From Myxococcota bacterium (GTDB taxonomy: Bacteria > Myxococcota_A > JAVEVO01), in the NCBI GenBank assembly GCA_034005005.1, contig JAVEVO010000003.1, forward strand, positions 25,493 through 89,492: a DNA stretch of 64,000 bases, written 5' to 3'. Below the pieces are notes generated by a model that saw nothing but the letters and a program-made list of their open reading frames with translations, did not search any database and was not told the DNA's origin. A program made the position numbers and the translations under genes. Shown here one piece after another: positions 6,472 to 36,398 of this stretch (position 1 is its first letter; every line of letters begins with the position of its first letter).

Positions 6472-7844
6472 CGGTTCCGGGGGCCGTACCAGCGGCTGCG
6501 GCGGGGGCGCCGGCGGGGCCGAGCCGGGTCGTCTGGCTCCCCGGCGGGAGGGAGGGGGGCCGCGGGAGGAGGGGTGACCGGCTCCCCCTCACGGGGAGCG
6601 GGATGCTCGCCGCGTTGCTGGAGGTCTCGCCGCAACTGGAGGATCCGATCGAGGGGGTCGCCCTCCAGCCGGCGGCCGAGCTCGTGGAGGAAGAGCGCCT
6701 CGCCGAGGCCGGGGCGCCGGAGGAGCGCATCGCGGTGCCCCCCCGAGCGTCGGCGGCGGGCCGCGAGCCGGCGTTCGGTGATGAACACCTGCTTGAGCCG
6801 CTCCGTCTCCCGTCGCGGGAGCCTCATCCGGGTGGCGAACTCACCCACGATCTGGTCCACGGCCGCGCCGAGGTTCGTCGGGTTCTCGCGGGCCAGCCGG
6901 TGCAGGATCGGCAGATAGCCCACGACGGCGAGGAGGAGGGCGTCCTCGGGGACCCCCTGGCGGGCGGTGGTCTCGTCGAGCAGCTCGAGCAAGCGCCAGA
7001 AGCGGCCGGCCGTGGGCGGGACGGGGGCCTCGGGAGGCGGGGCCTCCGTCTCGCCGGTGGCGACGAGGTACTCCTGGACCTCCGGGAGCAGGATCGCGAG
7101 CTGTCCGGAGCGGAGCAGCAAGGTCAAGGTGGTGCGGGCGTGGGGGCCACGCAGCAGGCGGAAGATCTCCTCGAGCAAGCGTGGCGGGGCGGCGCGCCGG
7201 ATCTCCTCGCCATGGTGGAGCATCGCCGCCCAGAGCAGGGGATCGATGGTCAGGTCGAGGCGGCTGGCGAACTTGATCGCCCGGAGGATGCGGACCGGGT
7301 CCTCCTGGATGCGGATCTCGGGGTCACCGATGGCCCGGACGGTGCGGGCCGTGATATCGGGCAGCCCGTGGACGTGATCGAGGATCTCGCGGGTGTGCAG
7401 ATCGTAGAACAGCCCGTTGATCGTGAAGTCCCGACGGCGGGCATCCTCGGCGGGCGTGCCGAAGAGGTTGTCGTCCGTGATCAGCAGGTCCTCGTCCTCG
7501 GCGAGCTCCACCCCGTTGTCCAACCGCTCGGCCCAGGGGGCGCGGCGGAACGTGGCGACCTCGATGACCTTGCCGGCCCGGAAGAAGATGTGCGCCAGGC
7601 GGAAGCGCCGCCCGATGATCTTGGAGTTGCGGAAAATGCGACGAATTTCGCGTGGTTGCGCTGCGGTGGCGACGTCGAAATCCTTGGGGGTGACGCCGAG
7701 CAGCAGGTCCCGGACGCAGCCCCCGACGAGATAGGCCTCGAAGTGGTAGCGGCGGAGCCGTCGGACGACCGTGACCACGTCTTCGTCCAGCAGGCCGGGC
7801 GGGAGGGGATGATAGACACGGTGCGGAGGGCTGTCCCAGTCCAT
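6468..7844 (-). CDS. pcnB: poly(A) polymerase I / tRNA nucleotidyltransferase family protein
   Basis: Carries YLVGGCVRDLLLG, PKDFDVAT, IGRRFRLAHI and IEVATFR motifs, with an Arg-rich C-terminus. The start is assigned to the ATG encoding MDWDSPP (7844). The upstream part of the longer track ORF is Pro/Arg-rich, low-complexity and non-homologous. Confidence 0.85.
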   Translation of the reverse strand: MDWDSPPHRVYHPLPPGLLDEDVVTVVRRLRRYHFEAYLVGGCVRDLLLGVTPKDFDVATAAQPREIRRIFRNSKIIGRRFRLAHIFFRAGKVIEVATFRRAPWAERLDNGVELAEDEDLLITDDNLFGTPAEDARRRDFTINGLFYDLHTREILDHVHGLPDITARTVRAIGDPEIRIQEDPVRILRAIKFASRLDLTIDPLLWAAMLHHGEEIRRAAPPRLLEEIFRLLRGPHARTTLTLLLRSGQLAILLPEVQEYLVATGETEAPPPEAPVPPTAGRFWRLLELLDETTARQGVPEDALLLAVVGYLPILHRLARENPTNLGAAVDQIVGEFATRMRLPRRETERLKQVFITERRLAARRRRSGGHRDALLRRPGLGEALFLHELGRRLEGDPLDRILQLRRDLQQRGEHPAPREGEPVTPPPAAPLPPAGEPDDPARPRRRPRRSRWYGPRNR

Positions 7845-8019
7845 ACTTCCGCCATGCTCAGCAGGCCGACCCGCCGGTGGGGGGGGAGGTGCCCCCGATC
7901 GCGGTCCTGGGCCGAGCCAGGTGGCCGACTTATAGGCAGTCGCCACCCATCGCGCAACGGATTTCGCCACGGGAGGCCGTCGCGGCGGGCAGCGAAATCC
8001 TCGCTCCGCCGGGCCGGAT

Positions 8020-9378
8020 GTGCTAGGTGAGGAGGAGGAGCAGCAGGTGAATGGCCGAGGAGGAGCAGTGACTCCCAGGAAGGCGGAAGAGCGGTTGCCG
8101 GTCGCATCCCTCCTGGGCCGCCTGGTGGCTCTGGGAGCTGCGCTCGGCGTCGCGGACGGGCTGCTGCTGGGCCTGATCGGCCCCGTCGGGGAGGCCTCCA
8201 CCTGGGCCGCGGCGATCCACCTCGGCGTCCTCGCGGGGCTCGCCTCTCTGCTCCTGGCCATGGTCCTCGCGCCGCTCATGCTGGCCTTGCGACGCTTCAC
8301 CTTTTTGGTCCGGCACCTCTCGGATGCTCTCTTCTCCCTGCTCGGCCTGGCGGGGGTGGCGACGGCCGGCTACGTCCTGATCCGGCAGCCGAGCTGGTTC
8401 TCCTTCGACCTGCGCCTGCTCGTCCTCGCCGCGCTGCTGTTGCTCGGTCTGCTGCTGGTCCGCAGCTCCCTCGGCCAGCCGCGGCCGGCCCGGATCTTCG
8501 CCGGCCCGACGCTGCTCGCGGGCCTGGCGGTGGCCTTGCTCACGGGTGGGCTGTTGATGCTCCAGCAGCCCCTGGCCATCTCGACTCACGACGGCCTCGC
8601 CCGCAGCGTCAGCGGCTCCACCCTGCTGCGGCCTCTGCGGCATCTGGCCGACGAGGACCGGGATGGTGCCCCCCGCTGGCTCTGCAGCCTGGACTGCGAC
8701 TGCGACGATCACGACCCGACCCGGGCGCCGTGGGCGCTCGACCTCGCCGGGGATGGTCACGACGCCGACTGCGACGACCGGGACGGTCCGGCCACCCGCC
8801 TGCTCCCCGAGCCCGTGGACCTGCCGGAGCGGGTGCTGGTCTTCGAGCCCGACGAGCTCTCGGAGGCCCCGTCCGCGGCGCCTTCCCCGGCCCCGGCCGC
8901 GGCGCCTCCCCCGGCCCCGGCCGCGGCGCCTCCCCCGGCCCCGGTCGCAGCGCCTCCCCCGGCCCCGGTCGCGGCGCCTCCCCCGGCCCCGGCCGCGGCG
9001 CCTCCCCCGGCCGCCTCCCCGGCCCCGGCCCCCGCACCCCCGGGAGCCGGGAGCTCCCTGGGGGCCGCGGGGCCGAGCGATCAGCTCCTCGCAGCCTGCC
9101 GGCGGGGGCTCGGGCGGGAGTTCGGGGGCGCTCGCCCAGCCCGCGCGCTCGCCGGGGCGGTCGGCCGTTGGGCTCCGCAGCCCGGCGCGGCGCTGGTTCT
9201 TCCTGAAAGACATCCACTTTCGAGTGGTTGCGGACCTCTTCGGGGATGTCCGCTCCGGGATGAGCCGCGCCCGAGCGCTTTCCTGGGCTCCGGCGCTGGT
9301 TCCTCCTCCTCCCTCCCGGGCTCGCGCCCGGGCTCCGGCACGCTTCTTGCCGTTCACCGTCCCGAGGTGCTAGCATGA
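8020..9378 (+). CDS. polytopic membrane protein with MopE-like half motif (CDCDDHDP...DCDDRDG) and Pro/Ala-rich repeat tail; 3' end uncertain
   Basis: Several hydrophobic helices, then a Cys/Asp-rich motif, then an (APPPAPAAA)x5 repeat. GTG at 8020 or 8047 follows a GAGGAGGAGGAG stretch. The region after 9150 is low-complexity and may not be translated. Confidence 0.5.
   Translation: MLGEEEEQQVNGRGGAVTPRKAEERLPVASLLGRLVALGAALGVADGLLLGLIGPVGEASTWAAAIHLGVLAGLASLLLAMVLAPLMLALRRFTFLVRHLSDALFSLLGLAGVATAGYVLIRQPSWFSFDLRLLVLAALLLLGLLLVRSSLGQPRPARIFAGPTLLAGLAVALLTGGLLMLQQPLAISTHDGLARSVSGSTLLRPLRHLADEDRDGAPRWLCSLDCDCDDHDPTRAPWALDLAGDGHDADCDDRDGPATRLLPEPVDLPERVLVFEPDELSEAPSAAPSPAPAAAPPPAPAAAPPPAPVAAPPPAPVAAPPPAPAAAPPPAASPAPAPAPPGAGSSLGAAGPSDQLLAACRRGLGREFGGARPARALAGAVGRWAPQPGAALVLPERHPLSSGCGPLRGCPLRDEPRPSAFLGSGAGSSSSLPGSRPGSGTLLAVHRPEVLA
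8876..9012 (+). repeat. 27-bp tandem repeat x5 (gcgcctcccccggccccggccgcg...), encoding APPPAPAAA repeats
   Basis: Directly visible tandem units with single-base variants (gcc/gtc). Confidence 0.85.
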
Positions 9379-9406
9379 AGGGCTCGGGCCGGCGCGGCGG
9401 AGCGAG

Positions 9407-11050
9407 GTGACCGGGATGGCCAGGGGCAAAGGCATCTCCATCGGCCTCAAGCTGGCCGCGGTCAGCACGGGGGTGATCACGCTCCTGGTGGCGATGGTCG
9501 GCTACCTCAACTACTCGGAGGTCCGCCGCGCCTACGAGGACGCGGCCAGCCGGGACCAGCAGCGTCGCCTGCGCGCCCTGCGGGACAACGCCGTGGTCAC
9601 CGGGCGGCGGCTGGCGCACTCCGTCGGTCTCGCGCTCTCGGGCAACGACTACGCCGCCCTCGCCGAGCTGGTCTCCTCGGCGCAGCAAGACGATCCCCAG
9701 TGCCGCTACGGCCGGATCCTCGACCTCGACGGGCTGGTGATGGCCGACACCGATCCCGAGGTCCAGCGGAGCATCCACGAGGGCAAGCACCAGCGCCTGG
9801 AGGAGAAGCCCCCCGAGCAGGTGGCCATCCGGATCCGCTGTCCGGTGCAGGTCCCCGACTGCCCTACCGAGAAGCTGACCCCGGCCGCGGTCCTCGCGGA
9901 CGTGCGCGACGAGCTGACCTTCGAGGTCTCGGTGCCGGTGGCGCGAGGGGAGCAACGCTTCGGGACCATCGTCTTCGGTTACACCCTGAGCCAGCTCCGG
10001 CAGGAGCTCGGCGCCGCCCAGGAGCGGATGCAGCAGATGCTGGCCGCCAGTCTGCGGCGGGCCTTGCTCTTCGGCGCCCTGGCGATCCTCCTCGGCACCC
10101 TGGTGGCGGTCCTCCAGGGGATGGGCATGACCCGCACCCTGCAGAAGCTGGCCCATGCCGCGACCCGCATCGCCCACGGCGACTTCTCCAGCCGGGCCCC
10201 CATCGTGTCGCGCGACGAGATCGGCCAGCTCGCCGGCGCCTTCAACGACATGGCCGGCCGGCTGGAGGGGCTGATGGAGGAGCGGACCCGTCAGGCGACC
10301 CTCGAGAAGGAGATGGAGGTCGCCCGGGTGATCCAGGAGACGCTGATCCCGCCCCGGGACCTCGTCCGCCGCGGCTCGTTGCAGTTCGTCGGCGCGTTCG
10401 CCTCGGCGAGCATCTGCGGCGGCGACTGGTGGACCTACTCCGACCTGGCGGGGGGGCGGGTGCTCGTGGCTATCGGCGACGTCACCGGCCACGGGGTGCC
10501 CAGCGCGATGATCACCGCCGCGGCCAAGTCGGCCCTCGACACCCTGCGCCACACCACGGGCTCCGATCTCTCGGTCACCTACCTGCTCGAGGAGATGAAC
10601 AAGACGATCTACGCCGCCGCGCAGCGCAAGCTCGTCATGACCTTCTTCGCGTCGATCTACGACGAGTCGACGCGCACCTTGACCTTCTCCAACGCGGGCC
10701 ACAACTTCCCCTACCTGATCCATCCGGGGGGAGACGGCCGGCCACCACGCGTCGGTGTGCTCATGACCCGCGGCAATCGCCTGGGAGACGACTGGGAGTC
10801 CCACTTCATCGCGCGCACCGCCACACTCTCTCCCGGCGACGTCGTGGTCTGGTACACCGACGGCCTCATCGAGGGCACCAACCCCCAGGGCGAGGCGTTC
10901 GGCGACCGCCGCCTGCGCCGGGTGCTGACGGAGCTCTGCGAGCGCTCGCCCGAGGAGATCCTCGAGGCGACGCTGCGCGCCTTCCGGGAGCATCAGCAGG
11001 AGGCAGCCCTGCAGGACGACATCACCCTGGTCGTGGCCAGGGTCGGCTAG
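9407..11050 (+). CDS. membrane sensor with HAMP domain and PP2C-type (RsbU/SpoIIE-like) serine phosphatase domain
   Basis: N-terminal TM helix and periplasmic region, a second TM helix, then HAMP (IAHGDFSSRAPIVSRDEIGQLAGAFNDMAGRL). PPM motifs follow (GGDWWTY, IGDVTGHGVPSAM, NAGH, VVWYTDGLIE). Confidence 0.8.
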   Translation: MTGMARGKGISIGLKLAAVSTGVITLLVAMVGYLNYSEVRRAYEDAASRDQQRRLRALRDNAVVTGRRLAHSVGLALSGNDYAALAELVSSAQQDDPQCRYGRILDLDGLVMADTDPEVQRSIHEGKHQRLEEKPPEQVAIRIRCPVQVPDCPTEKLTPAAVLADVRDELTFEVSVPVARGEQRFGTIVFGYTLSQLRQELGAAQERMQQMLAASLRRALLFGALAILLGTLVAVLQGMGMTRTLQKLAHAATRIAHGDFSSRAPIVSRDEIGQLAGAFNDMAGRLEGLMEERTRQATLEKEMEVARVIQETLIPPRDLVRRGSLQFVGAFASASICGGDWWTYSDLAGGRVLVAIGDVTGHGVPSAMITAAAKSALDTLRHTTGSDLSVTYLLEEMNKTIYAAAQRKLVMTFFASIYDESTRTLTFSNAGHNFPYLIHPGGDGRPPRVGVLMTRGNRLGDDWESHFIARTATLSPGDVVVWYTDGLIEGTNPQGEAFGDRRLRRVLTELCERSPEEILEATLRAFREHQQEAALQDDITLVVARVG

Positions 11051-11058
11051 GCGAGACC

Positions 11059-13551
11059 ATGCGCAGGATCCTCGAGCAGCTCTGCCCCCCCGTCGCGGTC
11101 CCGCCCGGCGCCCGGCGCGGGGGAGCGATCCTGACCGCCCTGCTGACGGCGCTGCTGCTCGTCGGCCTCCCGCTCTCCCTGCCTGCACAGGGCCGCTTCG
11201 AGGAGTCGACGGAGGCCGAGAAGGCGTTTCTGGCCGGTCTCCGCTTCGAGGAAGAGGCCGTGGCGCTCCAGCGGCGCGAAGGGCTGGCGTCGGCCCGGAG
11301 CCTCTATCAGAAGGCCGAGGTGGAGTACCGCCGGGCCCTCACGCTGGATCCCCGCCTCGTCAAGGCCGCGGCGAAGGCCGGGTACGTCCTCTATATCCTG
11401 GACGAGCCCGATAAAGCCATCGGGATCCTCGAGAAGGCGCGCGCCGTCGACGCAAATGACCCTGATGTGAAGCATATTCTGGCCGTCAATTTGTTCAAAA
11501 AGCGTGACTACGCTCGCTCAATCCCGCTGCTCGAAGAAGTGGTCGCGAAAAATGCTGATCTGTACTATGGTGCCGCCTTCTTGTTAGGAAAGTACTATTA
11601 TGACTCCGCTAATCTTCAGAGAGCCGAGATCTACTTCCAAAAGTACCTATCTGTAAAGCCAGACGATCATAAAGTCCATGGTGTCGTGGGAAATATCTAC
11701 CTGAAGCAGCAGAAGTTCGATGAAGCCCTGCGCGAGTTCAAGAAAGTGATCGAACTCGACCCAGAAGACCTCAGAGCTCAAGTGAATGTCGGAAACATCG
11801 AATATCAAAAAGAGAATTTTGCTGAGGCTGCACGCCTCTTCGAAAAAATCCTCCAGAAAGATCCGACGAAGGCATCGATTCATTACAACCTGGCCAGCTC
11901 GTACTTCCAGATCCGCCGCTATCCAGAGGCCATCCGCTTCTATCGCTCCTTCTTGCGTCTCCGCCCGGGGAGCAGCAGCGGTCACTTCTACCTCGGTCAC
12001 GCGCACGCGGCCCTGGGCGAGCTGGTGCCAGCCGTGGAGCAGTACCAGCTCGCACGCCAGGTCCAGCCCGACCATCCGGGCATCGCCTACCGGCTGGGCC
12101 TGGTGCTCGCGCGGCTCGGGCGGGACGAGGAGGCCGCGCGGGAGCTGCGCCAGGCCGCCCGGCTCGCGCCCCAGGACCCCTGGCCCGTCGCCCAGCAGGC
12201 CAACCTGCTCCGCCGCACCGGTCGGCTCGACGAGGCCCTCGCGCTCCACCTGCGCCTCGTCCGCGAGCAGCCGGCGGAGCCTTTGTTCCGCGTCTTCGCG
12301 GCGGAGAGCTTGCTCGCCAAGGGGATGCTCGCCGAGGCGCGCGCCGAGGTGGCGGAGGGTCGCCGCCTGCTGCCCGATCACCCCGCGCTCGTCGAGGTGC
12401 AGGCGCGGCTGCTCGGCCAGGAAGCGCAGCACTTTCTCCGGGACGGCAAGCCGGAGCAGGCCGCCGCGCAGCTCACCGCCGCGCTCCGGCTCGCCCCCGA
12501 GGAGCCGACGCTCCTCTTCGGCCAGGCCCTGCTGCAGATCCGCCAGGGCCAGCTCGCGCAGGGCCAGCAACTCCTCGAGAAGATCGCCACGCGGATGAAG
12601 CCCGTCGACCCGGCGGTCGTCCTAGCTCATGGGGAGGCGCTCGCCTTGCTCGGGCGACCGGCCGAGGCCTCGCCCCTCCTCGATCGGGCCGCGTCCGCCC
12701 TCGGCGAAGGAGACTACCGGGTGGTCCACACCCGGGCCTTGCTGGCGGCCAGCCGCGGCGACGAGGAGGCGGCCCTCGACCTGCTGGCCACGCTCGACGG
12801 GCCGGCGGCCGAGGTGGCGGTGCGCAACCAGGCCCGGCTGCAGGTCCGCCTCGCGGGCGAGCAGCTCGCGGAGGGGCGGGGGAAGCAGGCCCGGCAGCTC
12901 CTCGCGCAGGCGGAGCGCACCGCCGATCGCCTGCCGGCGCCCCAGGCCCGGCAGCTCCGTCGCGTGCTCGTTACCGCCTTGCTCGAGGGCAAGGAGTACG
13001 GCCGGGCGCAGGAGGTGCTCAAGACCTTGCGCAAGGACCTCCCCGCCGACGAAGACCTGCTGTACCTGGAGGCCTACGCCGACTACCGGCGCTCCCAGCT
13101 CGACCGCGCCTGGGCCGAGATCAAGGACCGGCCCGGCCTGCGGCAGGCCGGGCGGCTGGCCGAGCTCGGGCGGCAGATCCTGCACCGGCAGGCCGCCGCG
13201 CAGCTCCGGCGGGGCAACGCGGGGGCGGCCGAGCGCCTGTTGCACCAGCTCCAGGGCCTCCCCGGGGGTGAGCTCGACGCGGTCCGGCACGACCTCGCCC
13301 TCGTCGACTGGCTGCGTGGCCGGGGCCCCGCGGCGACGGCCAAGCTCACCGCCCTGGCCGCCCGGGGCACCGTGCCCGAGGCCGAGCTGAACCTCGGCCT
13401 GCTCGCGGACCAGCGGGGCGAGAAGCGGCGTGCGTACGACCTGTATCGTCTCTACCTCGCCCGTGGCGGCGGCGAGCTGGCCGCGACCGTCCGGGAGCTG
13501 GTCGAGGCCAAGGAGCGGGTGTTCGGCTTCGGCCGGGAGGTGACACCATGA
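11059..13551 (+). CDS. secreted TPR repeat protein (~830 aa)
   Basis: ATG at 11059 followed by a signal-peptide-like segment (ILTALLTALLLVGLPLSLPAQG), then many TPR units. The 9700..13551 track ORF is a read-through artefact. The gene contains a ~460-bp low-GC segment (11440-11900). Confidence 0.8.
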   Translation: MRRILEQLCPPVAVPPGARRGGAILTALLTALLLVGLPLSLPAQGRFEESTEAEKAFLAGLRFEEEAVALQRREGLASARSLYQKAEVEYRRALTLDPRLVKAAAKAGYVLYILDEPDKAIGILEKARAVDANDPDVKHILAVNLFKKRDYARSIPLLEEVVAKNADLYYGAAFLLGKYYYDSANLQRAEIYFQKYLSVKPDDHKVHGVVGNIYLKQQKFDEALREFKKVIELDPEDLRAQVNVGNIEYQKENFAEAARLFEKILQKDPTKASIHYNLASSYFQIRRYPEAIRFYRSFLRLRPGSSSGHFYLGHAHAALGELVPAVEQYQLARQVQPDHPGIAYRLGLVLARLGRDEEAARELRQAARLAPQDPWPVAQQANLLRRTGRLDEALALHLRLVREQPAEPLFRVFAAESLLAKGMLAEARAEVAEGRRLLPDHPALVEVQARLLGQEAQHFLRDGKPEQAAAQLTAALRLAPEEPTLLFGQALLQIRQGQLAQGQQLLEKIATRMKPVDPAVVLAHGEALALLGRPAEASPLLDRAASALGEGDYRVVHTRALLAASRGDEEAALDLLATLDGPAAEVAVRNQARLQVRLAGEQLAEGRGKQARQLLAQAERTADRLPAPQARQLRRVLVTALLEGKEYGRAQEVLKTLRKDLPADEDLLYLEAYADYRRSQLDRAWAEIKDRPGLRQAGRLAELGRQILHRQAAAQLRRGNAGAAERLLHQLQGLPGGELDAVRHDLALVDWLRGRGPAATAKLTALAARGTVPEAELNLGLLADQRGEKRRAYDLYRLYLARGGGELAATVRELVEAKERVFGFGREVTP

Positions 13552-14648
13552 GGCCCCGCCGCACCAGCGTCGGGTGCGTGCTCCTCGCTCTCGGGCTGCT
13601 CGCGCTGCCGGCTCCCCTCGCGGCGCAGGCCGGGGCCGGGCCACAACCCGCGCCCCTCACCCTCGCCTTCTTCACCCCCCAGCTCGCCTTCCCCGGCGCG
13701 CTGGAGCGCAGCGGCTGGCAGAGCGCGGTGGCGGCCCACCTCTCGGCCGCGACCGGGCTCACCATCGAGGCCAAGGGCTTCGCCCGGGCCGGGGACTTCC
13801 GGACCTTCCTGCACCGGTCCCCCGGGGCGCTAGCGATCGCCGACGCCCAGCTCGCCCTCGCCGCCGGCTGGACGCCCCTGCTGCAGGCCGTCTCCGGTGA
13901 CGGGGTCGCGGTCCTGCCCATGGCCGTGGCCTCCCTGCAGCCAGGCACGCTCCCGGCCTTGCAGGGGCGCACGCTGATCCTCGCCGACAGTGGCGGTGGC
14001 GAGAAGGCCCTGGTGGGGGGGCTGGTGCTCGCGGGTGAGGTCCCGCCGGCGAAGTTCTTCGCCAAGCTGGCGGTCGCCCCCGACGCGCCCAGCGCGGCCG
14101 CCGCGGTCTCCCTGGGCAAGGCCGACGCCGCCCTGATCTACTCCTTCATCGCCCGGGAGCGGGGGCTGGCCCTGGTGCTGGAGACCGAGGGCGCCCCCCT
14201 GCCCCTGCTGGTCGCGGCGGGCAAGGAGCCGAGCCTCGAGGTGCGCAGCCGCGTCGCCGCCGCGCTCGCCGCGGCCCCCGCGGGCGGCGGCATCGGCGGC
14301 TGGCGGGCCGTGGATGGCGTCCTGCTGGCCCGCTTCCGCGGCCGCCTCGCACCCTCCACCACGCGCCCCCTGGTCCCCGCGTCCGTGCCCTGGCTGCCCT
14401 TGCGCGAGGTCGCGGGAGCGGCGACGGCCGCGGGGGAGCTGCCCCTCGAGCCCTTGCCCGCCCGGCAGCTCTTCGAGCTGCCGCCGCTCTCCGGGGTGGC
14501 CGATTTCCTGCCGCGCGGTCAACTCCAGGAGGGGAGCGACGAGCGTGCGACCGACACGGCGAACCCTGGACGCCCCGACCTCCCCGCCCCCGAGGGTGAG
14601 CCGGGGGAGCCGGCCCCGGGCGCCCTCCCGGAGGGAGCCGGCCCATGA
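13548..14648 (+). CDS. secreted hypothetical protein, weak resemblance to type-2 periplasmic binding protein fold
   Basis: ATGA overlap with the TPR gene stop. Signal peptide LLALGLLALPAPLAAQA. Ala/Leu-rich, with an acidic Pro-rich tail. Confidence 0.55.
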   Translation: MRPRRTSVGCVLLALGLLALPAPLAAQAGAGPQPAPLTLAFFTPQLAFPGALERSGWQSAVAAHLSAATGLTIEAKGFARAGDFRTFLHRSPGALAIADAQLALAAGWTPLLQAVSGDGVAVLPMAVASLQPGTLPALQGRTLILADSGGGEKALVGGLVLAGEVPPAKFFAKLAVAPDAPSAAAAVSLGKADAALIYSFIARERGLALVLETEGAPLPLLVAAGKEPSLEVRSRVAAALAAAPAGGGIGGWRAVDGVLLARFRGRLAPSTTRPLVPASVPWLPLREVAGAATAAGELPLEPLPARQLFELPPLSGVADFLPRGQLQEGSDERATDTANPGRPDLPAPEGEPGEPAPGALPEGAGP

Positions 14649-15616
14649 ACGGCCGGATCCTCGCGCTGGTCACCGACCCCCGCATCCGCCGGGGAGTGCT
14701 GCGCACCCTGGCCGCCACCCGCTCCACGGTAGTCGAGGCTCCCGATCTCGCCACCGCGGCGGCCTACCTGGGCCAGGCCTCCTACGACCTGTTGATCCTC
14801 GATCACGACGCCTGCCCGGGCGAGCACGTCGCGGCGTTCCTCGCGGAGGCCTACGCGCGGCTCTCGCCCCTGACGCCCGTGTTCCTGCTCGCCGACCGGC
14901 TGGCCGACGAGGAGCTGGCCCGGCTCTTCTCCAGCGGCATGCTGACCCACCTGCTGGCCAAGTCGGAGCCGTTCGATCCGCACGAGCTCCTCGTCTCGTG
15001 TGAGCGGGTGCTGCGGGGTGACATCTTCGGGCTCGAGAAGTACCTCGCCTGGGGGATCGAGCCGGAGACGTTGCTGGTGCGTGGCTCGGCCGACCGGGAG
15101 CACATCCTCGAGCGGCTGAATCGCTACCTCGACGAGCTCGCCATCCCCTCCCGGCTGGCAGGCTTCGCGCAGGGCGTGGCCGACGAGCTGCTGATGAACG
15201 CGGTCTACAACGCGCCGGTCGATGCGCAGGGGCGACGGCTCTTCGCCGGCCGCAGCCGGACCGAGAAGCTCGTGCTGCCGCCTGGTCAGGAGGCGCTCTT
15301 CCGCTACGCGTGCGATGGTCGCTGGCTCGCGCTCTCGGTGCGGGACTCGTTCGGCTCCCTCGAGCGCGACGTGCTCTTCGCCAACCTCGGCCGCTGCCTG
15401 CTGCACGGCCAGGACCAGATCTCCGACAAGCCGGGCGGGGCGGGGATGGGGCTGTTCGTGGTCCTGTCCTCCGTCAACAGCTTCGTGGTCAGCCTCGCTC
15501 CCGGTCGGGCCACCGAGATGATCGGCCTGCTCGACGTCACCGGCTCGTACAAGACCTTCGCGGCTCGGCCCAAGTCCTTCCACCTCTTCTTCGGCGAGAT
15601 GCGCCCGGGAGGTTGA
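14645..15616 (+). CDS. receiver (REC)-like domain protein with C-terminal GHKL/HATPase-like region (RsbW/anti-sigma-kinase-like)
   Basis: ATGA overlap with the previous gene. The N-terminus has a CheY-like pattern (ILALVTD...DLLILDHD). The C-terminus has ELLMNAVYNAP and GAGMGLFVV, resembling N and G boxes of HATPase_c. Confidence 0.55.
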   Translation: MNGRILALVTDPRIRRGVLRTLAATRSTVVEAPDLATAAAYLGQASYDLLILDHDACPGEHVAAFLAEAYARLSPLTPVFLLADRLADEELARLFSSGMLTHLLAKSEPFDPHELLVSCERVLRGDIFGLEKYLAWGIEPETLLVRGSADREHILERLNRYLDELAIPSRLAGFAQGVADELLMNAVYNAPVDAQGRRLFAGRSRTEKLVLPPGQEALFRYACDGRWLALSVRDSFGSLERDVLFANLGRCLLHGQDQISDKPGGAGMGLFVVLSSVNSFVVSLAPGRATEMIGLLDVTGSYKTFAARPKSFHLFFGEMRPGG

Positions 15617-15620
15617 AGCC

Positions 15621-17861
15621 GTGCCGTTGGTCTGTGCCACCTGCGAGCGGACGTTCGAGGAGGGGACCTACTGTCCCTTCGACGGCACCCGGCTGCACGA
15701 CCCGACGCTCGAGCAGAGCCTCCCGGATCCGCTGATCGGGCGGATCCTCGACGGGCGCTACCTGCTCGAGCAGCGGGTGGGTGCCGGGGGCATGGGCACC
15801 GTCTACCGGGCCCGCCACGTGCTGATGGAGAAGGCGGTAGCGGTCAAGGTGCTGCGGCCCGAGCTGGCCAACGACGCCTACGCCGCGGGACGCTTCCGGC
15901 GGGAAGCGCGCAGCGCCAGCCGGATCATGCACGAGAACTGCGTGGCGGTGACCGATTTCGGCCAGGAGCCGGACGGGACGCACTTCCTCGTGATGGAGTA
16001 CGTCGAGGGCGAGACGCTCTGGCACCTGCTGCGGGAAGGTGGGCCGCTGCCGGTCGGCCGCCTGCTCGACACCGCGATCCAGGTGGCCCGGGCCCTGAGC
16101 GCCGCCCACGAGCAGGGGGTGATCCACCGGGACCTCAAGCCCGAGAACGTCATGCTCGTCCTGCGGGACGAGCGTCGTAACCTTGTGAAAGTGCTCGATT
16201 TTGGCCTGGCCAAGGTGATCCAGGCTTCGGACGAGAACGCCTTCACCGCGATCACCCGGCACGGGATGATCTTCGGCACGCCGCGCTATATGGCCCCGGA
16301 GCAGATCGAGGGCCGCGACATCGATCCGCGGGCGGATCTGTACAGCTTCGGGGTCATGCTCTACGAGATGGCCTCCGGCAAGCTGCCCTTCGAGGACCGC
16401 TCGGTCGTGGCCTTGCTCAACAAGCACGTCCACGAGGAGCCGGTGCCGCCTTCCCTCCGGGTGCCCGAGCTCGAGATCCCGGTCGGTCTCGAGCAGCTCA
16501 TCCTCCTGCTGATGGCGAAGCAGCCGACCGATCGGCCAGCGAGCTCCCGCGAGGTGCTGCGGCGGCTGGAAGACCTCGATCAGGAGCTCCGGCAGCCCGT
16601 GGCCGCGGCCTCGCCCCTGCCCACGACCCCGGAGGCGGTCTCTCTCCTCCCGGCCCCGCGGCGCGGGAGCTGGCTGCTCCCCGCCTTGCTCGGCGCCGCG
16701 GTCGCCGCGGTGGCCATCTTCTTGCTCCTCTGGTTCACGGGCGGCCCGCCCCCCCGGCCGCCGCGCGCCGGCGCGGGGACCGCGGCCCCGGTCGACGGCT
16801 CGCTCCCGGGTACGGCCCCGCCGGCGGCCGGCTCGGCCCTGGCCACGCCGCCTCCCGTGGAGGTGGCGGCTGTCGCGGTCCCGGCACCCCGGTCGCCCGG
16901 TCCGGGGCCGGCCGCGGCCGGGACGGGATCTCCCCACGAGCCCCCGGCAACCGCCTCGCCCCGCGCGCTCGTGGCGGTCGTCCCCGGCGCGGCGGTCGTC
17001 CCCGGCGCGGCGCCTCCCGTGCTCTCGCCCACGCCGCCCGCGGCCGTCCCGGGCCGGGCCACGGTCACGGCTCCCCCGGCCTCGCCGGCCCCGCACGCGG
17101 CTCCCCTGGCCCCCAGCCCGACCCCGCGGCCCGGCCCGGCCGCGCGTCCGGCCGCGGGCCGTTCCCGCCCACTCCTCCCGGCCCCGGCGGCCTCCCCGGT
17201 CCCCGGTGCCGCCAGCCCTCGGGCCGCTCCGGATGTGCCGGTCGCCTCCCGGCCAGCCAGCCCCAGGCCGACCCCCGCGCCAGCCCCCGCGCCGGCCCCC
17301 GCGCCGGCCCCCGCGCCGGTCCCCGCGCCGGCCCCCGCGCCGGCCCCCGCGCCGGCCCCCGTGGCCGCGACCGTGGTCTCGCCGCCAGCCATCCCCTCGC
17401 CCTCGCTCCCGGTCCTGCCCGGCCCCTCCCGCTCGCCCGGCAGCGCCGGTGCCCCCGTCCTCCCCGTCACGGCCAGCCCTGCGGCGCCGGCCCCCGCGGC
17501 CGGCTCCTCGGAGGTGGCGGGGTTGCTCGGCCAGGCGCGCCAGGCGCTGGCTCGCCGGGACGAGGTCGCCGCGGCCAGTATCCTCCAGCGCGCCCTCTCC
17601 CTGGCCCCCAACGATCCCCGGGTCCACCTCGGCTTCGCCAACTTCCACTTCGAGCGCGGCAGCCTCGAGGCGGCCCAGCGGTCTGCGCAGCGGGCCGTGG
17701 CCCTCCGGCCGGGGGGCATCGCCGAGCTGTTGCTGCTCGGCCAGATCCACTACAAGCAGGGCGACCGCGACCTCGCCTGCACCACCTTCCTCGAGGTGCT
17801 CCGGCTGCAGCCCAATCAACAGAAGGCGCAGCACTACGTCAGCCTGGCCCGCTGCCGCTGA
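15621..17861 (+). CDS. Ser/Thr protein kinase with N-terminal zinc-ribbon-like CxxC...C motif, Pro/Ala-rich linker and C-terminal TPR
   Basis: GTG start 5 bp after the previous stop. Hanks motifs present (GAGGMGTVY, VAVK, HRDLKPENVML, DFGLA, APE). A (PAPAPA)n stretch is encoded by 12-bp tandem repeats near 17270-17370. TPR units at the C-terminus. Confidence 0.85.
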   Translation: MPLVCATCERTFEEGTYCPFDGTRLHDPTLEQSLPDPLIGRILDGRYLLEQRVGAGGMGTVYRARHVLMEKAVAVKVLRPELANDAYAAGRFRREARSASRIMHENCVAVTDFGQEPDGTHFLVMEYVEGETLWHLLREGGPLPVGRLLDTAIQVARALSAAHEQGVIHRDLKPENVMLVLRDERRNLVKVLDFGLAKVIQASDENAFTAITRHGMIFGTPRYMAPEQIEGRDIDPRADLYSFGVMLYEMASGKLPFEDRSVVALLNKHVHEEPVPPSLRVPELEIPVGLEQLILLLMAKQPTDRPASSREVLRRLEDLDQELRQPVAAASPLPTTPEAVSLLPAPRRGSWLLPALLGAAVAAVAIFLLLWFTGGPPPRPPRAGAGTAAPVDGSLPGTAPPAAGSALATPPPVEVAAVAVPAPRSPGPGPAAAGTGSPHEPPATASPRALVAVVPGAAVVPGAAPPVLSPTPPAAVPGRATVTAPPASPAPHAAPLAPSPTPRPGPAARPAAGRSRPLLPAPAASPVPGAASPRAAPDVPVASRPASPRPTPAPAPAPAPAPAPAPVPAPAPAPAPAPAPVAATVVSPPAIPSPSLPVLPGPSRSPGSAGAPVLPVTASPAAPAPAAGSSEVAGLLGQARQALARRDEVAAASILQRALSLAPNDPRVHLGFANFHFERGSLEAAQRSAQRAVALRPGGIAELLLLGQIHYKQGDRDLACTTFLEVLRLQPNQQKAQHYVSLARCR
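17270..17375 (+). repeat. 12-bp tandem repeat (gcgccggccccc)n encoding (PAPA)n linker of the kinase
   Basis: Directly visible tandem units. Confidence 0.8.
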
Positions 17862-17977
17862 GCCCCGCTTCCTGACCTGGGGCCCCCTCTCCCCGACCCT
17901 TGGAAGCGTTCCCCGGATCGGCTATACAGCCTCGACGGCGGGGGAGCTGCCCGGGAGCGACCCGGCCGAGGAGCAGC

Positions 17978-18841
17978 ATGTTCGACCCAGCAGCGACTTT
18001 CCCGCGGATCGCCCGCACCCTCCCCTGGAACGGCCGGGGCCACGCTCCGTGTCAGGAGATCCGGATCGGCACGGTAGGCCTCGGCGGCCCCGATCCGGTC
18101 ATCATCGGCGGCCCCTGCGCGGTGGAGAGCCGCGAGCAGCTCCTCGCCCTCGCCCGGGAGGTGAAGCAAGCCGGCGGCCAGATGCTGCGCGGCGGCGCGT
18201 TCAAGCCGCGCACCAGCCCCTACTCGTTCCAGGGGCTCGGCCTGCAGGGGCTGGACTTCCTGGCCGAGGCCCGGGCCGAGACGGGTCTGCCCATCGTCAC
18301 CGAGGTGATGGATCCCCGGCTCATCGAACGCGTCGGGGAGGTCGCGGACCTCCTCCAGGTGGGCTGTCGTTCCATGCAGAATTTTCCGCTGCTCATGGAA
18401 CTTGGCCGACAGCCGCGCCCCGTGCTGCTGAAGCGGGGGTTCTGCTCCACCCTCGAGGAGTGGCTCGGCGCGGCCGAGTACATCGCCAAGGGCGGCAACG
18501 ACCGGATCGTGCTCTGCGAGCGGGGGATCCGCAGCTTCACCGCGGGGGAGTATGCCCGGAATACGTCGGATATCAACGTCGTGCAGCCGGTCCTGGCGAG
18601 CACCCGGCTCCCCCTGATCTTCGACCCCAGCCACTCCACGGGGGACGCGGCGCTCGTGCCCTCGGTGGCCCGTGCGGCCCTGGCGGCCGGCGTGCACGGC
18701 CTGCTCGTCGAGGTGCGGACCCCGGCCACCCCGCCCGAGTCCTTGCTCTCGGATGGCCTCCAGGCCGTGACCCCCGGAACGCTCGCGGAGATCGTCCGCT
18801 TCGCCCGCTGGATCCGGGACTGGCGGGAGTCCGAGCAGTGA
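17978..18841 (+). CDS. 3-deoxy-D-arabino-heptulosonate 7-phosphate (DAHP) synthase, class I-beta (KDO8P-synthase-like)
   Basis: Motifs GPCAVES, GGAFKPRTSPYSFQGLG, PIVTEVMD, QVGCRSMQNF, PVLLKRG and LCERGIR are present. ATG at 17978 (MFDPAATFP) is preferred over the TTG at 17900. Confidence 0.85.
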   Translation: MFDPAATFPRIARTLPWNGRGHAPCQEIRIGTVGLGGPDPVIIGGPCAVESREQLLALAREVKQAGGQMLRGGAFKPRTSPYSFQGLGLQGLDFLAEARAETGLPIVTEVMDPRLIERVGEVADLLQVGCRSMQNFPLLMELGRQPRPVLLKRGFCSTLEEWLGAAEYIAKGGNDRIVLCERGIRSFTAGEYARNTSDINVVQPVLASTRLPLIFDPSHSTGDAALVPSVARAALAAGVHGLLVEVRTPATPPESLLSDGLQAVTPGTLAEIVRFARWIRDWRESEQ

Positions 18842-18858
18842 GCCGCGGCCGGGTCGAC

Positions 18859-20484
18859 ATGGCCCGGGCCGGCCGGGCCCGCCTGCTGCTGCTCGGCCTT
18901 CTGCTCCCGGCCTGCGCCTCCCCGGCCGCGACCCCGGCCGTCCCCCCGCTCGTCCTGGTCCAGGTGCCCGTCGGCTCGCCGGCGGCCGCCTGGTCCACCA
19001 CGGTCGAGCCCGCGTACCCCGCGGGGACCCGCCTGCTCCTCCTCGACCCCGCGGGCGGCCCGCCGCGCGTGCTCTCGCCGGGCCTGGACGTCGCCGCCTG
19101 GCCGGCGCCCAGCCCCGACGGCCGGCAGGTCCTCTTCGCCGGCCGGCGAGGGCCGGCGGATCCCTTCACCCTCTGGATCAGCGATCTCACCGGCGCGCCG
19201 CCGCAACCCTTCCCCGCGGGGCCCGGATCCTGCACGAACCCTCGCTGGATCGCCGCGGATCACGTCGTCATGCGCTGCGCGGCCAGCTTGCCGGCCCTCA
19301 CCGTGAGCAATCCCGGCGCCTTGTGGGTCGTCGGCCCGGGGAAACTCCCTCCCCGCCGCATCACCTTCGGCGTCCACCCGCAGTTCTCGCCCGAGGTGCT
19401 CCCCGACGGCCGGCTGGTCTATGGCGAGCGCGTCCTCGACCGGCCGCCACCGGAGGTCGATCCGGGCACGCTCCCCGGGGAGCGGATCGCCTTGCGGGCG
19501 GTCGACCCCGACGGGGCCGGGGCCGAGCGCTACCATGACCGCCTGCTCGAGCCGACCTACAAGCTGCGGGTGAAGCGCGGCGGCGAGGGCCGGTTGCTGA
19601 TCGTCGGTGGCCTCCCGGGCGAGACCCGGCCTGGCCCCGGGCGGCTGTTTCAGCTCGCGACCGGCTGGCCCGCGGTCCACGCCGAGCCGCTCCGCCCCGA
19701 CCTCGGCGGGCCGGTGGTCGGGGCCGCGGCCCTGCCCGGCGGCGGCCTGCTCCTCTGTCGGCAGGTCCCCGACGACCCGGTGTTCTCCCTGCAGTGGCTC
19801 CCGTCCGCGCTCGGCGGCGAGCCGCAGACCTGGCACCGCGACCCCGCCTTCCACGTGGCCGACGTCGAGCCGGTGCTCCCCTGGTCCCCCCCGTCGCTGC
19901 CGCTGTCCACCCTCGACGGGAGCGGCCGGGGCTGGCTCCTCCTCCTCGACCCCAGCGTCACCGAGCCGGGCTCCCTCGTCAGCGTGAGCCGCTATGGCCT
20001 CCACTCGGCGGTGCTGCTCGCCCCGGAGCCCGCCCCCGCCCCTCCCGAGGAAGGGCTCCCCGATCCCGATGACTTCCTGACCACGCGCCGGCTCCCGCCG
20101 CCGGCTGACCCCTACGCCGAGGCCGGGGGCTACACGCCCGAGACGCGGCGACGCCCCCTCGGTGAGTTCGCGGTGCAGCCCGACGGCTCGTTCCTGGTCG
20201 CGCTGCCGGCCGACACGCCCCTCACCCTGCGACTGCTCGGCGCCGGCGGCACCTACGCGGGTGACGTCCCGGGCTGGTTCTGGCTGCGGCCCGGCGAGAT
20301 CCGGAGCTGCCTGGGCTGCCACGAGGATCCCGGGCGGCTGCCGCCCAACGAGGTCTTCCTCGCCACGACCCGCCCGCCCTCCGTGCTGGGGCCGGTGATC
20401 CACGAGCCGCCCCCGCCGCCGGCCGTCGAGCTCCCCGTCGGCGCGCCCGGCGACGTCCCCCCGGACGCGGAGCTGCCGCGATGA
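18859..20484 (+). CDS. lipoprotein, hypothetical, with single CxxCH motif (CLGCH) near C-terminus
   Basis: ATG 18859 (an alternative GTG at 18838 overlaps the DAHP synthase stop). Lipobox LLLPAC. Pro/Gly-rich. The 17206..20484 track ORF is a read-through. Confidence 0.6.
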   Translation: MARAGRARLLLLGLLLPACASPAATPAVPPLVLVQVPVGSPAAAWSTTVEPAYPAGTRLLLLDPAGGPPRVLSPGLDVAAWPAPSPDGRQVLFAGRRGPADPFTLWISDLTGAPPQPFPAGPGSCTNPRWIAADHVVMRCAASLPALTVSNPGALWVVGPGKLPPRRITFGVHPQFSPEVLPDGRLVYGERVLDRPPPEVDPGTLPGERIALRAVDPDGAGAERYHDRLLEPTYKLRVKRGGEGRLLIVGGLPGETRPGPGRLFQLATGWPAVHAEPLRPDLGGPVVGAAALPGGGLLLCRQVPDDPVFSLQWLPSALGGEPQTWHRDPAFHVADVEPVLPWSPPSLPLSTLDGSGRGWLLLLDPSVTEPGSLVSVSRYGLHSAVLLAPEPAPAPPEEGLPDPDDFLTTRRLPPPADPYAEAGGYTPETRRRPLGEFAVQPDGSFLVALPADTPLTLRLLGAGGTYAGDVPGWFWLRPGEIRSCLGCHEDPGRLPPNEVFLATTRPPSVLGPVIHEPPPPPAVELPVGAPGDVPPDAELPR

Positions 20485-22475
20485 CCACCTCCTCCTCGTC
20501 CGGGCCGGCTCCCGCCCCGCCCCGCCCCGCCCCGCGGCGCCGGCGAGCGCTGTTGCTGCTGCTTTTCGGCGGCCTGCTGGTCGGCGGGCTGGTGCTCTGG
20601 TTGCGCCAGCAGGCGCAAGACCACCTCGCGATGACCCTGCGGGACCCGGCGGCCGGGTTCGGGGCCTGCTGGGACTGCCACGGCACCGGCCAGCCGCCGC
20701 GTCCCCTGCCGCGCCAGCCGCCCGCCCCCCTCGGGCTCGCGCTCCTCCCCGGGGGCGACCTGCTCGTCGGCGCCACCGGGGACGACAGCCTCTACCGCCT
20801 CGACCCCGCGCGGGCGCGCATCCGCTGGCGTCTGGACGTCGGCCCTCGTCCTCACGGGGTCGCGGTCGTCGACGGGGGAGCCCGCGCGCTCGTCGCGCTC
20901 CGGGACGCCGACGCCCTGGTCCCGGTGGATTTGGCGGCGCCGCGTCGCGAGGAGCCGATCCCCGTCGGGCGTGAGCCGACCGCGGTCGCGGTGGCCGCGC
21001 GCTGGGGGATCGCCCTGGTGACCAACAGCGGCTCCGACGACGTCTCGGTGGTCGATCTCCCGACGCGGCGCGAGCGCTACCGGCTGCCCGCGGGCCGTGA
21101 GCCCTACGCGGTCGCGATCGACCCGCAGGAGCGGCTGGCCGTGGTGGCCAACCGCCTGGTCTCCCCCCACGCCCCGCGCACCCCCCCCAGCAGCGAGGTG
21201 ACCGTCATCCTCCTCGGGAAGCGGCCCCGGGTCCTGGAGCGGCGGCAGTTGCCGTCGATCCACCTCGCCGAGAGCGTGGCGATCACCCCGGACGGCCAGC
21301 TCGCCCTGATCCCGGCCATGGTGACCCGCAACCTGCTCCCGACGACCCAGACCCGCCGCGGCTGGGTGGCGGCCAGCGTGCTCGTCGTCCTCGAGCTGGC
21401 CGAGCGCGGCCGGATCGTGCCGATCCTCCTCGACGGGCTCGATGACTACCACGCCGACCCCACGGCCGTCGCGCTCGAACCGGCGGGGCGGTTCGCGTAC
21501 CTGGCCAGCGGCGGGCGAGATCGGGTCCTCGAGCTCGACCTGGCGAAGCTCCGCCGTCTGCTCGAGGGGGAGGCGGCCGACGTCCTCCAGTCCCTCGGCA
21601 CCCGCCTCGGCCCGGGGACCTTGCTGCTCGCCCGTCGCTTCCCCACGGCGGCCAACCCCCGGGGGCTGGCCGTCGCCGAGGGGCGGCTGTACGTCAGCGA
21701 GCGACTCGCCGACGGCGTGGCGGTCTTCGACCTCGCCGCCGGCACGCTCCAGCACCGGTTCGCGCTCGGGCTGCTCGGGGGGCCCTCCCTGCAACAGCAG
21801 GGTGAGCAGCTCTTCTACCGCGCCTCGGCCTACCAGGGGCAGTTCTCCTGCCGCACGTGTCACCCCGACGGTCACCTCGACGGCCTGACCTACGACTTCG
21901 AGATCGACGGCCTCGGGGAGAACTTCGTCGACAACCGCAGCCTGCGCGGGCTCGTCGGCACGGCCCCCTTCAAGTGGACGGGGCTCAACCCGACCCTCGA
22001 CGTCCAGTGCGGTCCCCGCTTCTCCCGCATCCTCGGTCGCAGCCGTCCGTTCTCCGACGCCCAGAGCGCGGCCCTGCACGTCTTCGTCAACGCCCTGCCC
22101 ACGGCCAACGGTCGGCGTCCGCCCGTCGACACCCCGGAGGTCCGCCTCGGGCGGGAGGTGTTCTACCGGACCCGCACCCGCACCGGCGAGCTGATCCCGG
22201 TGCGTGACCGCTGTCCCTCCTGCCATCCGGCCCCGACCTTCACCAGCCAGACGCGCAGTCGCGTCGGCACGGGCGCACAGTCCGACTTCACCGACGTGTT
22301 CGACGCGCCCCACCTCCTCGACCTGCGCGACGGCCTCCCCTACCTGCACGACGGGCGCGCCGGGAGCCTGATGGAGCTGTTCGTGCGCGAGGACCCCGCG
22401 GAGCATCACGGCCGCACCCGCGACCTGGATCGGGTCGAGCTCAACGCGCTCGTCGAGTACCTGAGGACGCTGTGA
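20481..22475 (+). CDS. beta-propeller (YVTN/lactonase-like) repeat protein with three CxxCH haem-binding motifs (c-type cytochrome-like)
   Basis: ATGA overlap with the upstream gene. N-terminal TM/signal anchor. CWDCH, CRTCH and CPSCH motifs. The repeated DxxxxxxYVxxxxxxxVxVxD pattern is typical of YVTN propeller blades. Confidence 0.65.
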   Translation: MTTSSSSGPAPAPPRPAPRRRRALLLLLFGGLLVGGLVLWLRQQAQDHLAMTLRDPAAGFGACWDCHGTGQPPRPLPRQPPAPLGLALLPGGDLLVGATGDDSLYRLDPARARIRWRLDVGPRPHGVAVVDGGARALVALRDADALVPVDLAAPRREEPIPVGREPTAVAVAARWGIALVTNSGSDDVSVVDLPTRRERYRLPAGREPYAVAIDPQERLAVVANRLVSPHAPRTPPSSEVTVILLGKRPRVLERRQLPSIHLAESVAITPDGQLALIPAMVTRNLLPTTQTRRGWVAASVLVVLELAERGRIVPILLDGLDDYHADPTAVALEPAGRFAYLASGGRDRVLELDLAKLRRLLEGEAADVLQSLGTRLGPGTLLLARRFPTAANPRGLAVAEGRLYVSERLADGVAVFDLAAGTLQHRFALGLLGGPSLQQQGEQLFYRASAYQGQFSCRTCHPDGHLDGLTYDFEIDGLGENFVDNRSLRGLVGTAPFKWTGLNPTLDVQCGPRFSRILGRSRPFSDAQSAALHVFVNALPTANGRRPPVDTPEVRLGREVFYRTRTRTGELIPVRDRCPSCHPAPTFTSQTRSRVGTGAQSDFTDVFDAPHLLDLRDGLPYLHDGRAGSLMELFVREDPAEHHGRTRDLDRVELNALVEYLRTL

Positions 22476-31186: not shown

Positions 31187-32914
<1,728 letters not shown>

Positions 32915-36394: not shown

Positions 36395-36398
36395 GCCG

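Follow-up and report, generated by a model that had tools for sequence, protein, structure and literature searches.

A candidate partner-switching operon in a Myxococcota genome, built around a receiver-GHKL protein

In the RsbU-RsbV-RsbW and SpoIIE-SpoIIAA-SpoIIAB systems of Bacillus a PP2C phosphatase of the SpoIIE type is combined with a GHKL kinase of the RsbW/SpoIIAB fold that carries N, G1 and G2 boxes, and such phosphatases (RsbU, SpoIIE) classically act on STAS proteins. Other arrangements of these components have been described. In HsbR-HsbA of Pseudomonas and CrsR-CrsA of Shewanella, receiver, PP2C and RsbW-like kinase/anti-sigma activities are directed at a STAS antagonist (PMC6482189), and LvrC of Leptospira interrogans (PDB entry 9qih) is a Rec-Bergerat protein described as an anti-sigma factor that is Rec-regulated (PMC13269768). 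Here, we consider a block of five genes, g1 to g5, in a 64,000-nt stretch of contig JAVEVO010000003.1 from a Myxococcota bacterium (the window; all positions are window coordinates). The predicted products are a membrane PP2C phosphatase (g1), a tetratricopeptide-repeat (TPR) protein (g2), an exported binding protein (g3), a receiver-GHKL protein (g4) and a Hanks-type Ser/Thr kinase (g5). A first-pass annotation, made from the sequence without database searches, had read this block as a partner-switching module, and our analysis supports that reading; strong, if indirect, support comes from the family to which g4 belongs, which has a STAS protein with a zinc ribbon that adjoins g4 homologues or is fused to them.

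The g4 gene (14645-15616, + strand) encodes a presumably cytoplasmic protein. Searches of Pfam and NCBIfam with g4 alone found nothing for its C-terminal half, so a family alignment and structure prediction were needed. On both, the protein is a degenerate receiver (residues 1 to about 125) fused through a conserved linker, DIFGLEKYL, to a GHKL domain of the RsbW/SpoIIAB type (about 140-320). An exhaustive profile search gave 1,152 representatives at 50% identity with E <= 1e-30 and 2,843 with E <= 1e-10. The family proteins are about 320 residues long and, despite forming more than 1,000 clusters at 50% identity, are described by no Pfam or NCBIfam model. Two metagenome proteins (P0001 and P0121) show 97-98% identity. 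The family profile matched receiver domains in the PDB (2.2e-6), and HATPase_c_2, the model of RsbW-type kinases, was matched by 11 of 41 members (best 9.9e-7). Invariant in the alignment are D180, E181, N185, A186, D234, G237, G265, G267, G269, T290 and E291, which make up the motifs D180-E181-x3-N185-A186, D234-x2-G237, G265-A-G-L/M-G269 and T290-E291, the N, G1 and G2 boxes of the ATP-binding site. Their invariance suggests that g4 has kinase activity of its own, with a substrate to act on. The AlphaFold2 model has a predicted local distance difference test (pLDDT) score of 91.9. Foldseek aligned its first half with PhoB-type receivers and its second half with SpoIIAB (1til_E, TM-score 0.78) and RsbW (6m37_C, TM-score 0.75). 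The receiver/GHKL assignment of the first-pass annotation is thus borne out by the family profile, the invariant boxes and the structure matches. As to detection of the GHKL region by a hidden Markov model (HMM), on which that annotation had staked the assignment, the 11 relatives are recognized whereas the window protein is not, even at E <= 10.

The best full-length match of the g4 model in the PDB is LvrC (9qih_B, 2.1e-7; 9qih_A, 8.8e-7). Both proteins have about 300 residues and combine a receiver with a C-terminal RsbW-like Bergerat fold, but the sequence identity is only 13-14%. The receivers differ too. In the g4 family the equivalent of the acceptor Asp57 is kept in 38 of 41 members, that of Thr87 is Ser or Thr in only 15 of 41 and Ala in the window protein, that of Lys109 is Lys or Arg in 20 of 41, and the first acidic residue is not conserved. 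Such a degenerate pocket makes phosphorylation of the Asp doubtful in many family members, unlike in LvrC, the canonical receiver of which is phosphorylated by the histidine kinase LvrB. The five-gene operon includes no histidine kinase, and neither Pfam nor the AlphaFold2 model places a PP2C domain in g4. In contrast to the LvrC phosphorelay, the g4 family is linked to PP2C phosphatases, STAS-zinc-ribbon proteins and Hanks kinases, with a few members fused to or followed by histidine kinases. Those few include three loci (L003, L004 and L006) with a PAS histidine kinase after the pair formed by the g4 homologue and its STAS partner, two of which (L003 and L006) also have a single-domain CheY-like receiver, and a protein (P0156) in which a HisKA-HATPase_c protein is fused to receiver-GHKL. 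Some branches of the family therefore seem to be wired to two-component phosphotransfer.

The gene directly 3' of most g4 homologues encodes a protein of about 150 residues with a STAS domain and a zinc ribbon (STAS-ZnR). Of 80 loci that extend far enough to reveal it, 42 carry it on the same strand no more than 400 nt downstream, and 51 of 85 have one nearby. Pfam recognizes STAS only weakly in its N-terminal half (3.1e-4), and its C-terminal half is a CxxC...CxxC zinc ribbon. A profile restricted to the STAS part retrieved only STAS proteins from the PDB, namely TM1442 (2.2e-4), RsbV (1.1e-3) and a SpoIIAA-like protein (1.3e-3), with the STAS domains of prestin and MlaB ranking next. As related loci of the g4 family thus encode a STAS protein, the likeness to RsbU/V/W extends to the antagonist: an invariant Ser in the motif RINSxGVRxW aligns with the Ser of 'DSTG' in RsbV and of 'DSAG' in TM1442. 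The position is that of the residue phosphorylated in RsbV (Ser56) and SpoIIAA (Ser58).

Genetic linkage is in places replaced by physical linkage. One protein (P0221) has STAS-ZnR fused ahead of receiver-GHKL, another (P0139) has the two in the reverse order, and a third (P0201) strings together two STAS-like domains, the first with a zinc ribbon, a Pkinase domain and receiver-GHKL. Ser/Thr kinases encoded directly upstream of g4 paralogues likewise carry N-terminal STAS-ZnR domains. Hanks kinases with one or two such domains stand directly 5' of receiver-GHKL in L086 (5839-8004), L003, L004, L006 and L014, and the same arrangement is seen in L027, L028, L033, L036, L058 and L064; L036 has four STAS-ZnR copies. 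In three further loci (L001, L051 and L063) STAS-ZnR is instead immediately upstream of a g1-type phosphatase, and the order STAS-ZnR, PP2C, TPR protein, binding protein, receiver-GHKL is, judged by gene content, that of a complete switch. At the level of sequence, then, linkage and fusion of receiver-GHKL with STAS-ZnR, PP2C and Hanks kinases run through the family. Our literature searches found no description of the receiver-GHKL/STAS-ZnR pairing or of its fusion to Hanks kinases. A phosphatome paper of 2010 reported, without assigning a function to either, a conserved HAMP-SpoIIE orthologue group common to myxobacteria (MXAN_4562, sce8427 and Adeh_0917) and, in Sorangium, kinases fused to STAS domains (PMC2887360).

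The first-pass annotation had made its reading depend on conservation of the genes as a block in related genomes, and such conservation is found. Scanning one genome per species gave 327 stretches that encode g4 relatives, nearly all from Myxococcota or 'Deltaproteobacteria' metagenome-assembled genomes, with some from Bdellovibrionota, SAR324 and Bradymonadia. The full five-gene block is present in L081 and L088, and in L083 and L087 as far as the contig extends; in these four loci g4 is 54-61% identical to the window protein, the junctions are again overlapped and a g5 orthologue lies directly 3' of g4. The order g1-g2-g3-g4 recurs in four distant loci (L001, L008, L051 and L063) and g2-g3-g4 in about 15 more. 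Among the distant lineages g4 identity falls to 33-43% and genomic GC content ranges from 0.44 to 0.67. In other clades g1-like genes, with a transmembrane segment, HAMP and PP2C, flank pairs of g4 and STAS-ZnR genes. In a neighbour-joining tree the window clade lies next to a mixed group, some loci of which have a binding-protein gene upstream and others a Ser/Thr kinase gene upstream. Eleven loci (L007, L008, L010, L011, L013, L016, L018 and L020-L023) belong to low-GC Myxococcota/Bradymonadales metagenome-assembled genomes in which genes for the TPR, binding and receiver-GHKL proteins are followed by an Omp85/POTRA gene. The Omp85/POTRA protein has about 515-560 residues in most of them, and a gene for a secreted protein of about 210-250 residues with a conserved Cys pattern also follows.

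The phosphatase gene g1 (9407-11050, + strand) more probably starts at ATG 9416, which has GAGG 8 nt upstream, than at GTG 9407. Its product is a putative membrane sensor with two hydrophobic segments (residues 16-34 and 219-237), between which lies a periplasmic domain of about 180 residues (about 36-215); after the second come a HAMP domain (Pfam, 3.7e-15) and a SpoIIE/PP2C domain (1.3e-42; 146 bits against a cut-off of 25). The membrane and export assignments given here and below were made from hydropathy only. The PP2C metal-site motifs GGDWW, GDVTGHG, YTDG and DDITL can be read in the translation. The best NCBIfam match is SiaA (prot_phos_SiaA, 3.9e-27), but its 95.1 bits, set against a cut-off of 700, rule out orthology; what g1 has in common with SiaA of the Pseudomonas aeruginosa SiaABCD system is the layout of membrane anchor, HAMP and PP2C. 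A further difference from that system is that no match to SiaC (DUF1987) or to the GGDEF diguanylate cyclase SiaD was found among the scanned window proteins.

The g3 gene (13548-14648, + strand) encodes an exported protein with a signal-like hydrophobic segment (residues 8-26), a core (about 36-268) and a C-terminal tail of about 100 residues. Its match to the Pfam family Phosphonate-bd (PF12974) is below threshold (0.0043; 16.9 bits against 27), and a precomputed match to the same family is present in three relatives (P0124, P0125 and P0131). In the AlphaFold2 model the core has pLDDT values mostly above 90 and the tail is disordered. Foldseek ranked BstB (7t1m, 1.3e-13) first, with ArrX (3.4e-13), PtxB, AioX and PhnD also matched, at TM-scores of about 0.71-0.74, and by sequence BstB is the sole significant match of the g3 family profile in the PDB (5.4e-7). 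On the model, g3 is a two-lobe type II binding-protein fold of the PhnD/AioX/BstB type with a signal peptide. The Pfam score and the disordered tail distinguish it from AioX, ArrX and BstB, all of the Phosphonate-bd family. A free binding protein in the periplasm that signals to a membrane sensor has precedents in AioX and ArrX, although the presumed receptor of g3 is a PP2C phosphatase and not a histidine kinase. No genes for ABC permeases or ATPases adjoin g3, either in the block or in its conserved flanks.

Between these two genes lies g2 (11059-13551, + strand). Its product, a TPR protein of 830 residues, has a hydrophobic segment near its N terminus (residues 23-41) that would serve as signal or anchor, and is presumably periplasmic. 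Many TPR families match it at about 1e-38, among them TPR_19 (6.8e-38) and TPR_2. Within g2 a patch of about 540 nt (11419-11958) has a GC content of 0.43-0.54, a third-position GC content of 0.47-0.77 and a lysine-rich translation; the operon outside this patch has 0.70-0.83 and 0.87-1.0, respectively. At the equivalent position the L081 orthologue has a third-position GC content of 0.87-0.97, and that of L088 shows a single 90-nt dip (0.5). No DNA match to the patch, and so no foreign source, was found in any of the fetched loci, and the amino-acid identity to the L081 orthologue is ordinary within the patch. The patch could reflect mosaic recombination or be a functional AT-rich element.

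The last gene, g5 (15621-17861, + strand), encodes a kinase domain (Pfam Pkinase, 1.7e-49) preceded by a Cys motif and followed by a transmembrane segment (residues 352-370), a Pro/Ala-rich linker of about 270 residues and a presumably periplasmic C-terminal TPR region (TPR_19, 8e-9). With AVAVK, HRDLKPEN, DFG and APE motifs in its translation it is an active-looking Hanks kinase. The N-terminal motif, CxxC-x9-(Y)CPxDG, is kept in four orthologues, and no zinc-ribbon model matched the g5 N-terminus in the Pfam scan. The linker, encoded at 16700-17450, is of low complexity and includes an (AP)n run, and the local GC content there reaches 0.86-0.88. We also considered whether g5 is an orthologue of the STAS-ZnR kinases of sister clades, but the kinase domains are only about 28-35% identical, which leaves this unsupported. 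The first-pass annotation had named the products of g1, g2, g3 and g5 as a HAMP-PP2C phosphatase, a TPR protein, a secreted binding-protein-like protein and a zinc-ribbon Ser/Thr kinase. The first three calls hold, that for g3 through its fold and signal-like segment in spite of the low Pfam score; of the fourth, the kinase is confirmed and the Cys motif is conserved, but the zinc ribbon is without HMM support. To these descriptions we add the two transmembrane segments and periplasmic domain of g1, the signal or anchor of g2, and the transmembrane segment, linker and TPR region of g5.

The five reading frames lie on the + strand exactly where the first-pass annotation had put them, and have third-position GC contents of 0.86-0.95, a coding signature for DNA of about 73% GC, the value for the window. 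The junctions too are as it gave them. An 8-nt gap separates g1 from g2 (11050/11059). Read directly from the sequence, the g2/g3 coupling site (13535-13551, + strand) consists of GGGAGG (13535-13540), 7 nt and an ATG that overlaps the TGA (ATGA at 13548), and the g3/g4 site (14630-14648, + strand) of GGAGGGAG (14630-14637), 7 nt and a second such overlap (ATGA at 14645). At the g4/g5 junction (15607-15623, + strand), read in the same way, GGGAGG (15607-15612) within the end of g4 is followed by the TGA (15614-15616), a 4-nt gap and a GTG start at 15621. Shine-Dalgarno motifs of the GGAGG type thus stand 7-8 nt ahead of the g3, g4 and g5 starts, each within the preceding gene. That no gap exceeds 8 nt, that two genes overlap their predecessors at ATGA and that these motifs are internal all support the single operon proposed at first pass. 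A consensus promoter and terminator scan of 7800-19000 found no promoter-like site on the + strand, though such a scan is uninformative at so high a GC content, and its terminator-like matches were all inside coding regions. Rfam gave no match anywhere in the window at gathering thresholds.

We infer that the five genes form one operon for a cell-envelope signalling module of the partner-switching type. In this model g3 would bind a periplasmic ligand, possibly while held by the g2 TPR protein through the conserved disordered tail of g3, and would deliver the signal to g1 and set its phosphatase activity, just as histidine kinases receive their signals from AioX and ArrX; the periplasmic domain of g1 would relay it through HAMP into the cytoplasmic SpoIIE-type PP2C domain. 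The invariant Ser of a STAS-ZnR protein would be phosphorylated by g4 and dephosphorylated by g1, and the phosphorylation state would decide the binding partner of g4 or of the STAS protein. A candidate output is sequestration of a sigma factor, by the precedent of RsbW and the proposal made for LvrC. The g5 kinase would provide another input, specific to the lineage, the target of which is most likely g4 or the STAS partner. Taking the operon, mechanism and output together, we judge that the balance tips modestly in favour of this model.

Set beside RsbU/V/W, the phosphatase would differ in being a membrane sensor with HAMP and the kinase in having an N-terminal receiver-like domain; the family STAS partner has a C-terminal zinc ribbon and is not in the window, no sigma factor gene is linked, and two exported proteins and a Hanks kinase are included in the operon. 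Receiver, PP2C and RsbW-like activities also come together in HsbR and CrsR, and there, as may be the case here, the output is not limited to one sigma factor. In those proteins, however, the three domains form one cytoplasmic polypeptide, whereas the PP2C domain here is on the separate membrane protein g1, receiver-GHKL has two domains and the STAS partner carries a zinc ribbon.

Several observations weigh against the model. The most serious concerns the substrate. When the window was translated in six frames and searched with an HMM built from 45 STAS-ZnR sequences, no such protein was found (best E = 3), and the contigs of the low-GC clade and of the four closest relatives gave none either, so that for the window operon the key substrate is hypothetical; a STAS-ZnR partner would have to lie elsewhere in the genome, beyond the 64 kb of the window. 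Scanning 34 open reading frames of the window with Pfam revealed neither a STAS domain nor a sigma factor (Sigma70) or other output gene, in agreement with the first-pass annotation, which had seen no STAS antagonist or sigma factor in the window. With g4 alone as query Pfam and NCBIfam gave no significant match: Response_reg scored 0.03 and the C-terminal half matched nothing even at E <= 10. The flanks of the window block (poly(A) polymerase upstream; DAHP synthase, an HZS_alpha protein and rotamase downstream) are those of L081, L083 and L087, which makes conservation among these near relatives weak as independent evidence. Moreover, g5 is kept only in the near clade of the window, and in the low-GC clade the place of the kinase after g4 is taken by an Omp85/POTRA gene and one for a small secreted protein; the role of g2 and g3 may therefore lie in an envelope process and not purely in sensing.

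An alternative scheme dispenses with a STAS partner in the window lineage: g5 and g1 would phosphorylate and dephosphorylate Ser or Thr residues of g4 itself, for example in its pseudo-receiver, and g4 would be a regulated effector (for instance an ATPase or an anti-sigma factor). It is precisely in the window clade that a Ser/Thr kinase gene follows g4 and STAS-ZnR is missing from the vicinity. In sister clades the two genes are adjacent or overlap (8001/8004 in L086), in P0201 they are fused, and the degenerate receiver pocket makes Asp phosphorylation doubtful in many of the family's proteins. Yet SpoIIE-type phosphatases classically act on STAS proteins, and the sister-clade kinases bring STAS-ZnR domains of their own, so that the link between kinase and g4 may still run through STAS. 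The invariant ATP-binding boxes, in turn, suggest a kinase with its own substrate, and the low-GC clade keeps g2 to g4 without a Ser/Thr kinase or STAS gene nearby. On this evidence we think direct action on g4 rather unlikely, though it deserves to be kept in mind.

The low-GC clade lends itself to another explanation, as its Omp85/POTRA and small secreted proteins are encoded directly after g4: g2 and g3 might shuttle a hydrophobic or anionic envelope component across the periplasm, with an Omp85-type helper in some lineages, while g1, g4 and g5 merely regulate or report on the process. The sterol carrier BstB is both the only significant PDB match of the g3 family by sequence and the top match by fold, and it works with a TPR-like periplasmic partner, BstC (PMC10942540). 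However, the sensor proteins ArrX and AioX are matches to the g3 fold no worse than BstB, neither the block nor its conserved flanks encode an inner-membrane transporter (RND, ABC or TRAP), the window clade is without an Omp85 gene, and translation of g3 is coupled to that of a signalling protein of the cytoplasm; we therefore regard a carrier as improbable. It could finally be argued that separate signalling genes have simply been packed together without a common pathway, since most of the wider region is syntenic in the window, L081, L083 and L087, and Myxococcota genomes are crowded with Ser/Thr kinases, a second of which is encoded in the window at 30950-32914. Against this, the block persists with a different downstream flank in L088 and at 33-43% g4 identity in distant lineages of very different GC content, two of its junctions are stop/start overlaps, and independent fusions join the same types of component. 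Mere adjacency was already disfavoured and seems to us highly improbable.

Some features of the surrounding DNA may be recorded. An open reading frame 28 nt upstream of g1 (8020-9378, + strand) encodes about five N-terminal membrane segments, a MopE-like DCDCDDHD motif and a (P/A)-rich repeat, after which the coding signal fades. The L081 gene at this position encodes a 710-residue sulfatase with a weak MopE match, and as the window frame apparently lacks the sulfatase domain it may be truncated or decayed. Downstream of g5, 17900-24724 encodes DAHP synthase, a protein whose middle domain is that of hydrazine synthase alpha (HZS_alpha), a beta-propeller/NHL protein that weakly matches di-haem peroxidase and a Peripla_BP_6 protein, and then, on the - strand, a rotamase; L081, L083 and L087 are syntenic with the window over this set. 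A Tad/Flp pilus cluster (44465-54935) includes a prepilin peptidase, TadE, RcpC/CpaB, a ParA-like TadZ, a T2SSE ATPase, two T2SSF proteins, a TPR protein and a VWA/TadG-like protein. Inside the TadZ-like frame (47941-49194, + strand) ARAGORN predicts an 85-nt tRNA-Pro(cgg) on the - strand (48345-48429); Rfam finds nothing there, so the prediction is probably a false positive. A second dip in GC content at 34001-36000 (0.649) coincides with a stretch (34797-36399) without an open reading frame of high third-position GC content.

A wider interpretation can be offered only tentatively, and in all its parts together we consider it possible but less than probable. The family may be a large, undescribed signalling family in which a partner switch is directly wired to eukaryotic-like Ser/Thr kinases, made up of receiver-GHKL, STAS-ZnR, HAMP-PP2C of the g1 type and Hanks kinases, and distributed in Myxococcota as well as Bdellovibrionota, SAR324 and Bradymonadia. 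Some of its kinases would carry the STAS-ZnR 'antagonist' as an N-terminal domain, with three of the parts united in P0201. The window lineage would be a rewired form, in which the free STAS-ZnR protein gave way, by displacement or replacement, and the second arm of the switch was taken over by a membrane Hanks kinase that has a periplasmic TPR domain, and the whole unit would read a periplasmic ligand through the binding-protein/TPR pair.

To our knowledge, no other bacteria have sets of eukaryotic-like Ser/Thr kinases as large as those of Myxococcota, and the link of these kinases to classical bacterial signalling logics is largely uncharted. The operon and its relatives provide a concrete, testable case of such a link. 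The family joins an RsbW-type kinase to a receiver-like domain, an architecture only just characterized in LvrC, and brings with it a previously unremarked STAS-ZnR partner, as well as membrane PP2C sensors and Hanks kinases that are joined to both genetically and sometimes physically. If the model is correct, it would add a periplasmic front end, formed by a binding protein and a TPR protein, to partner switching.

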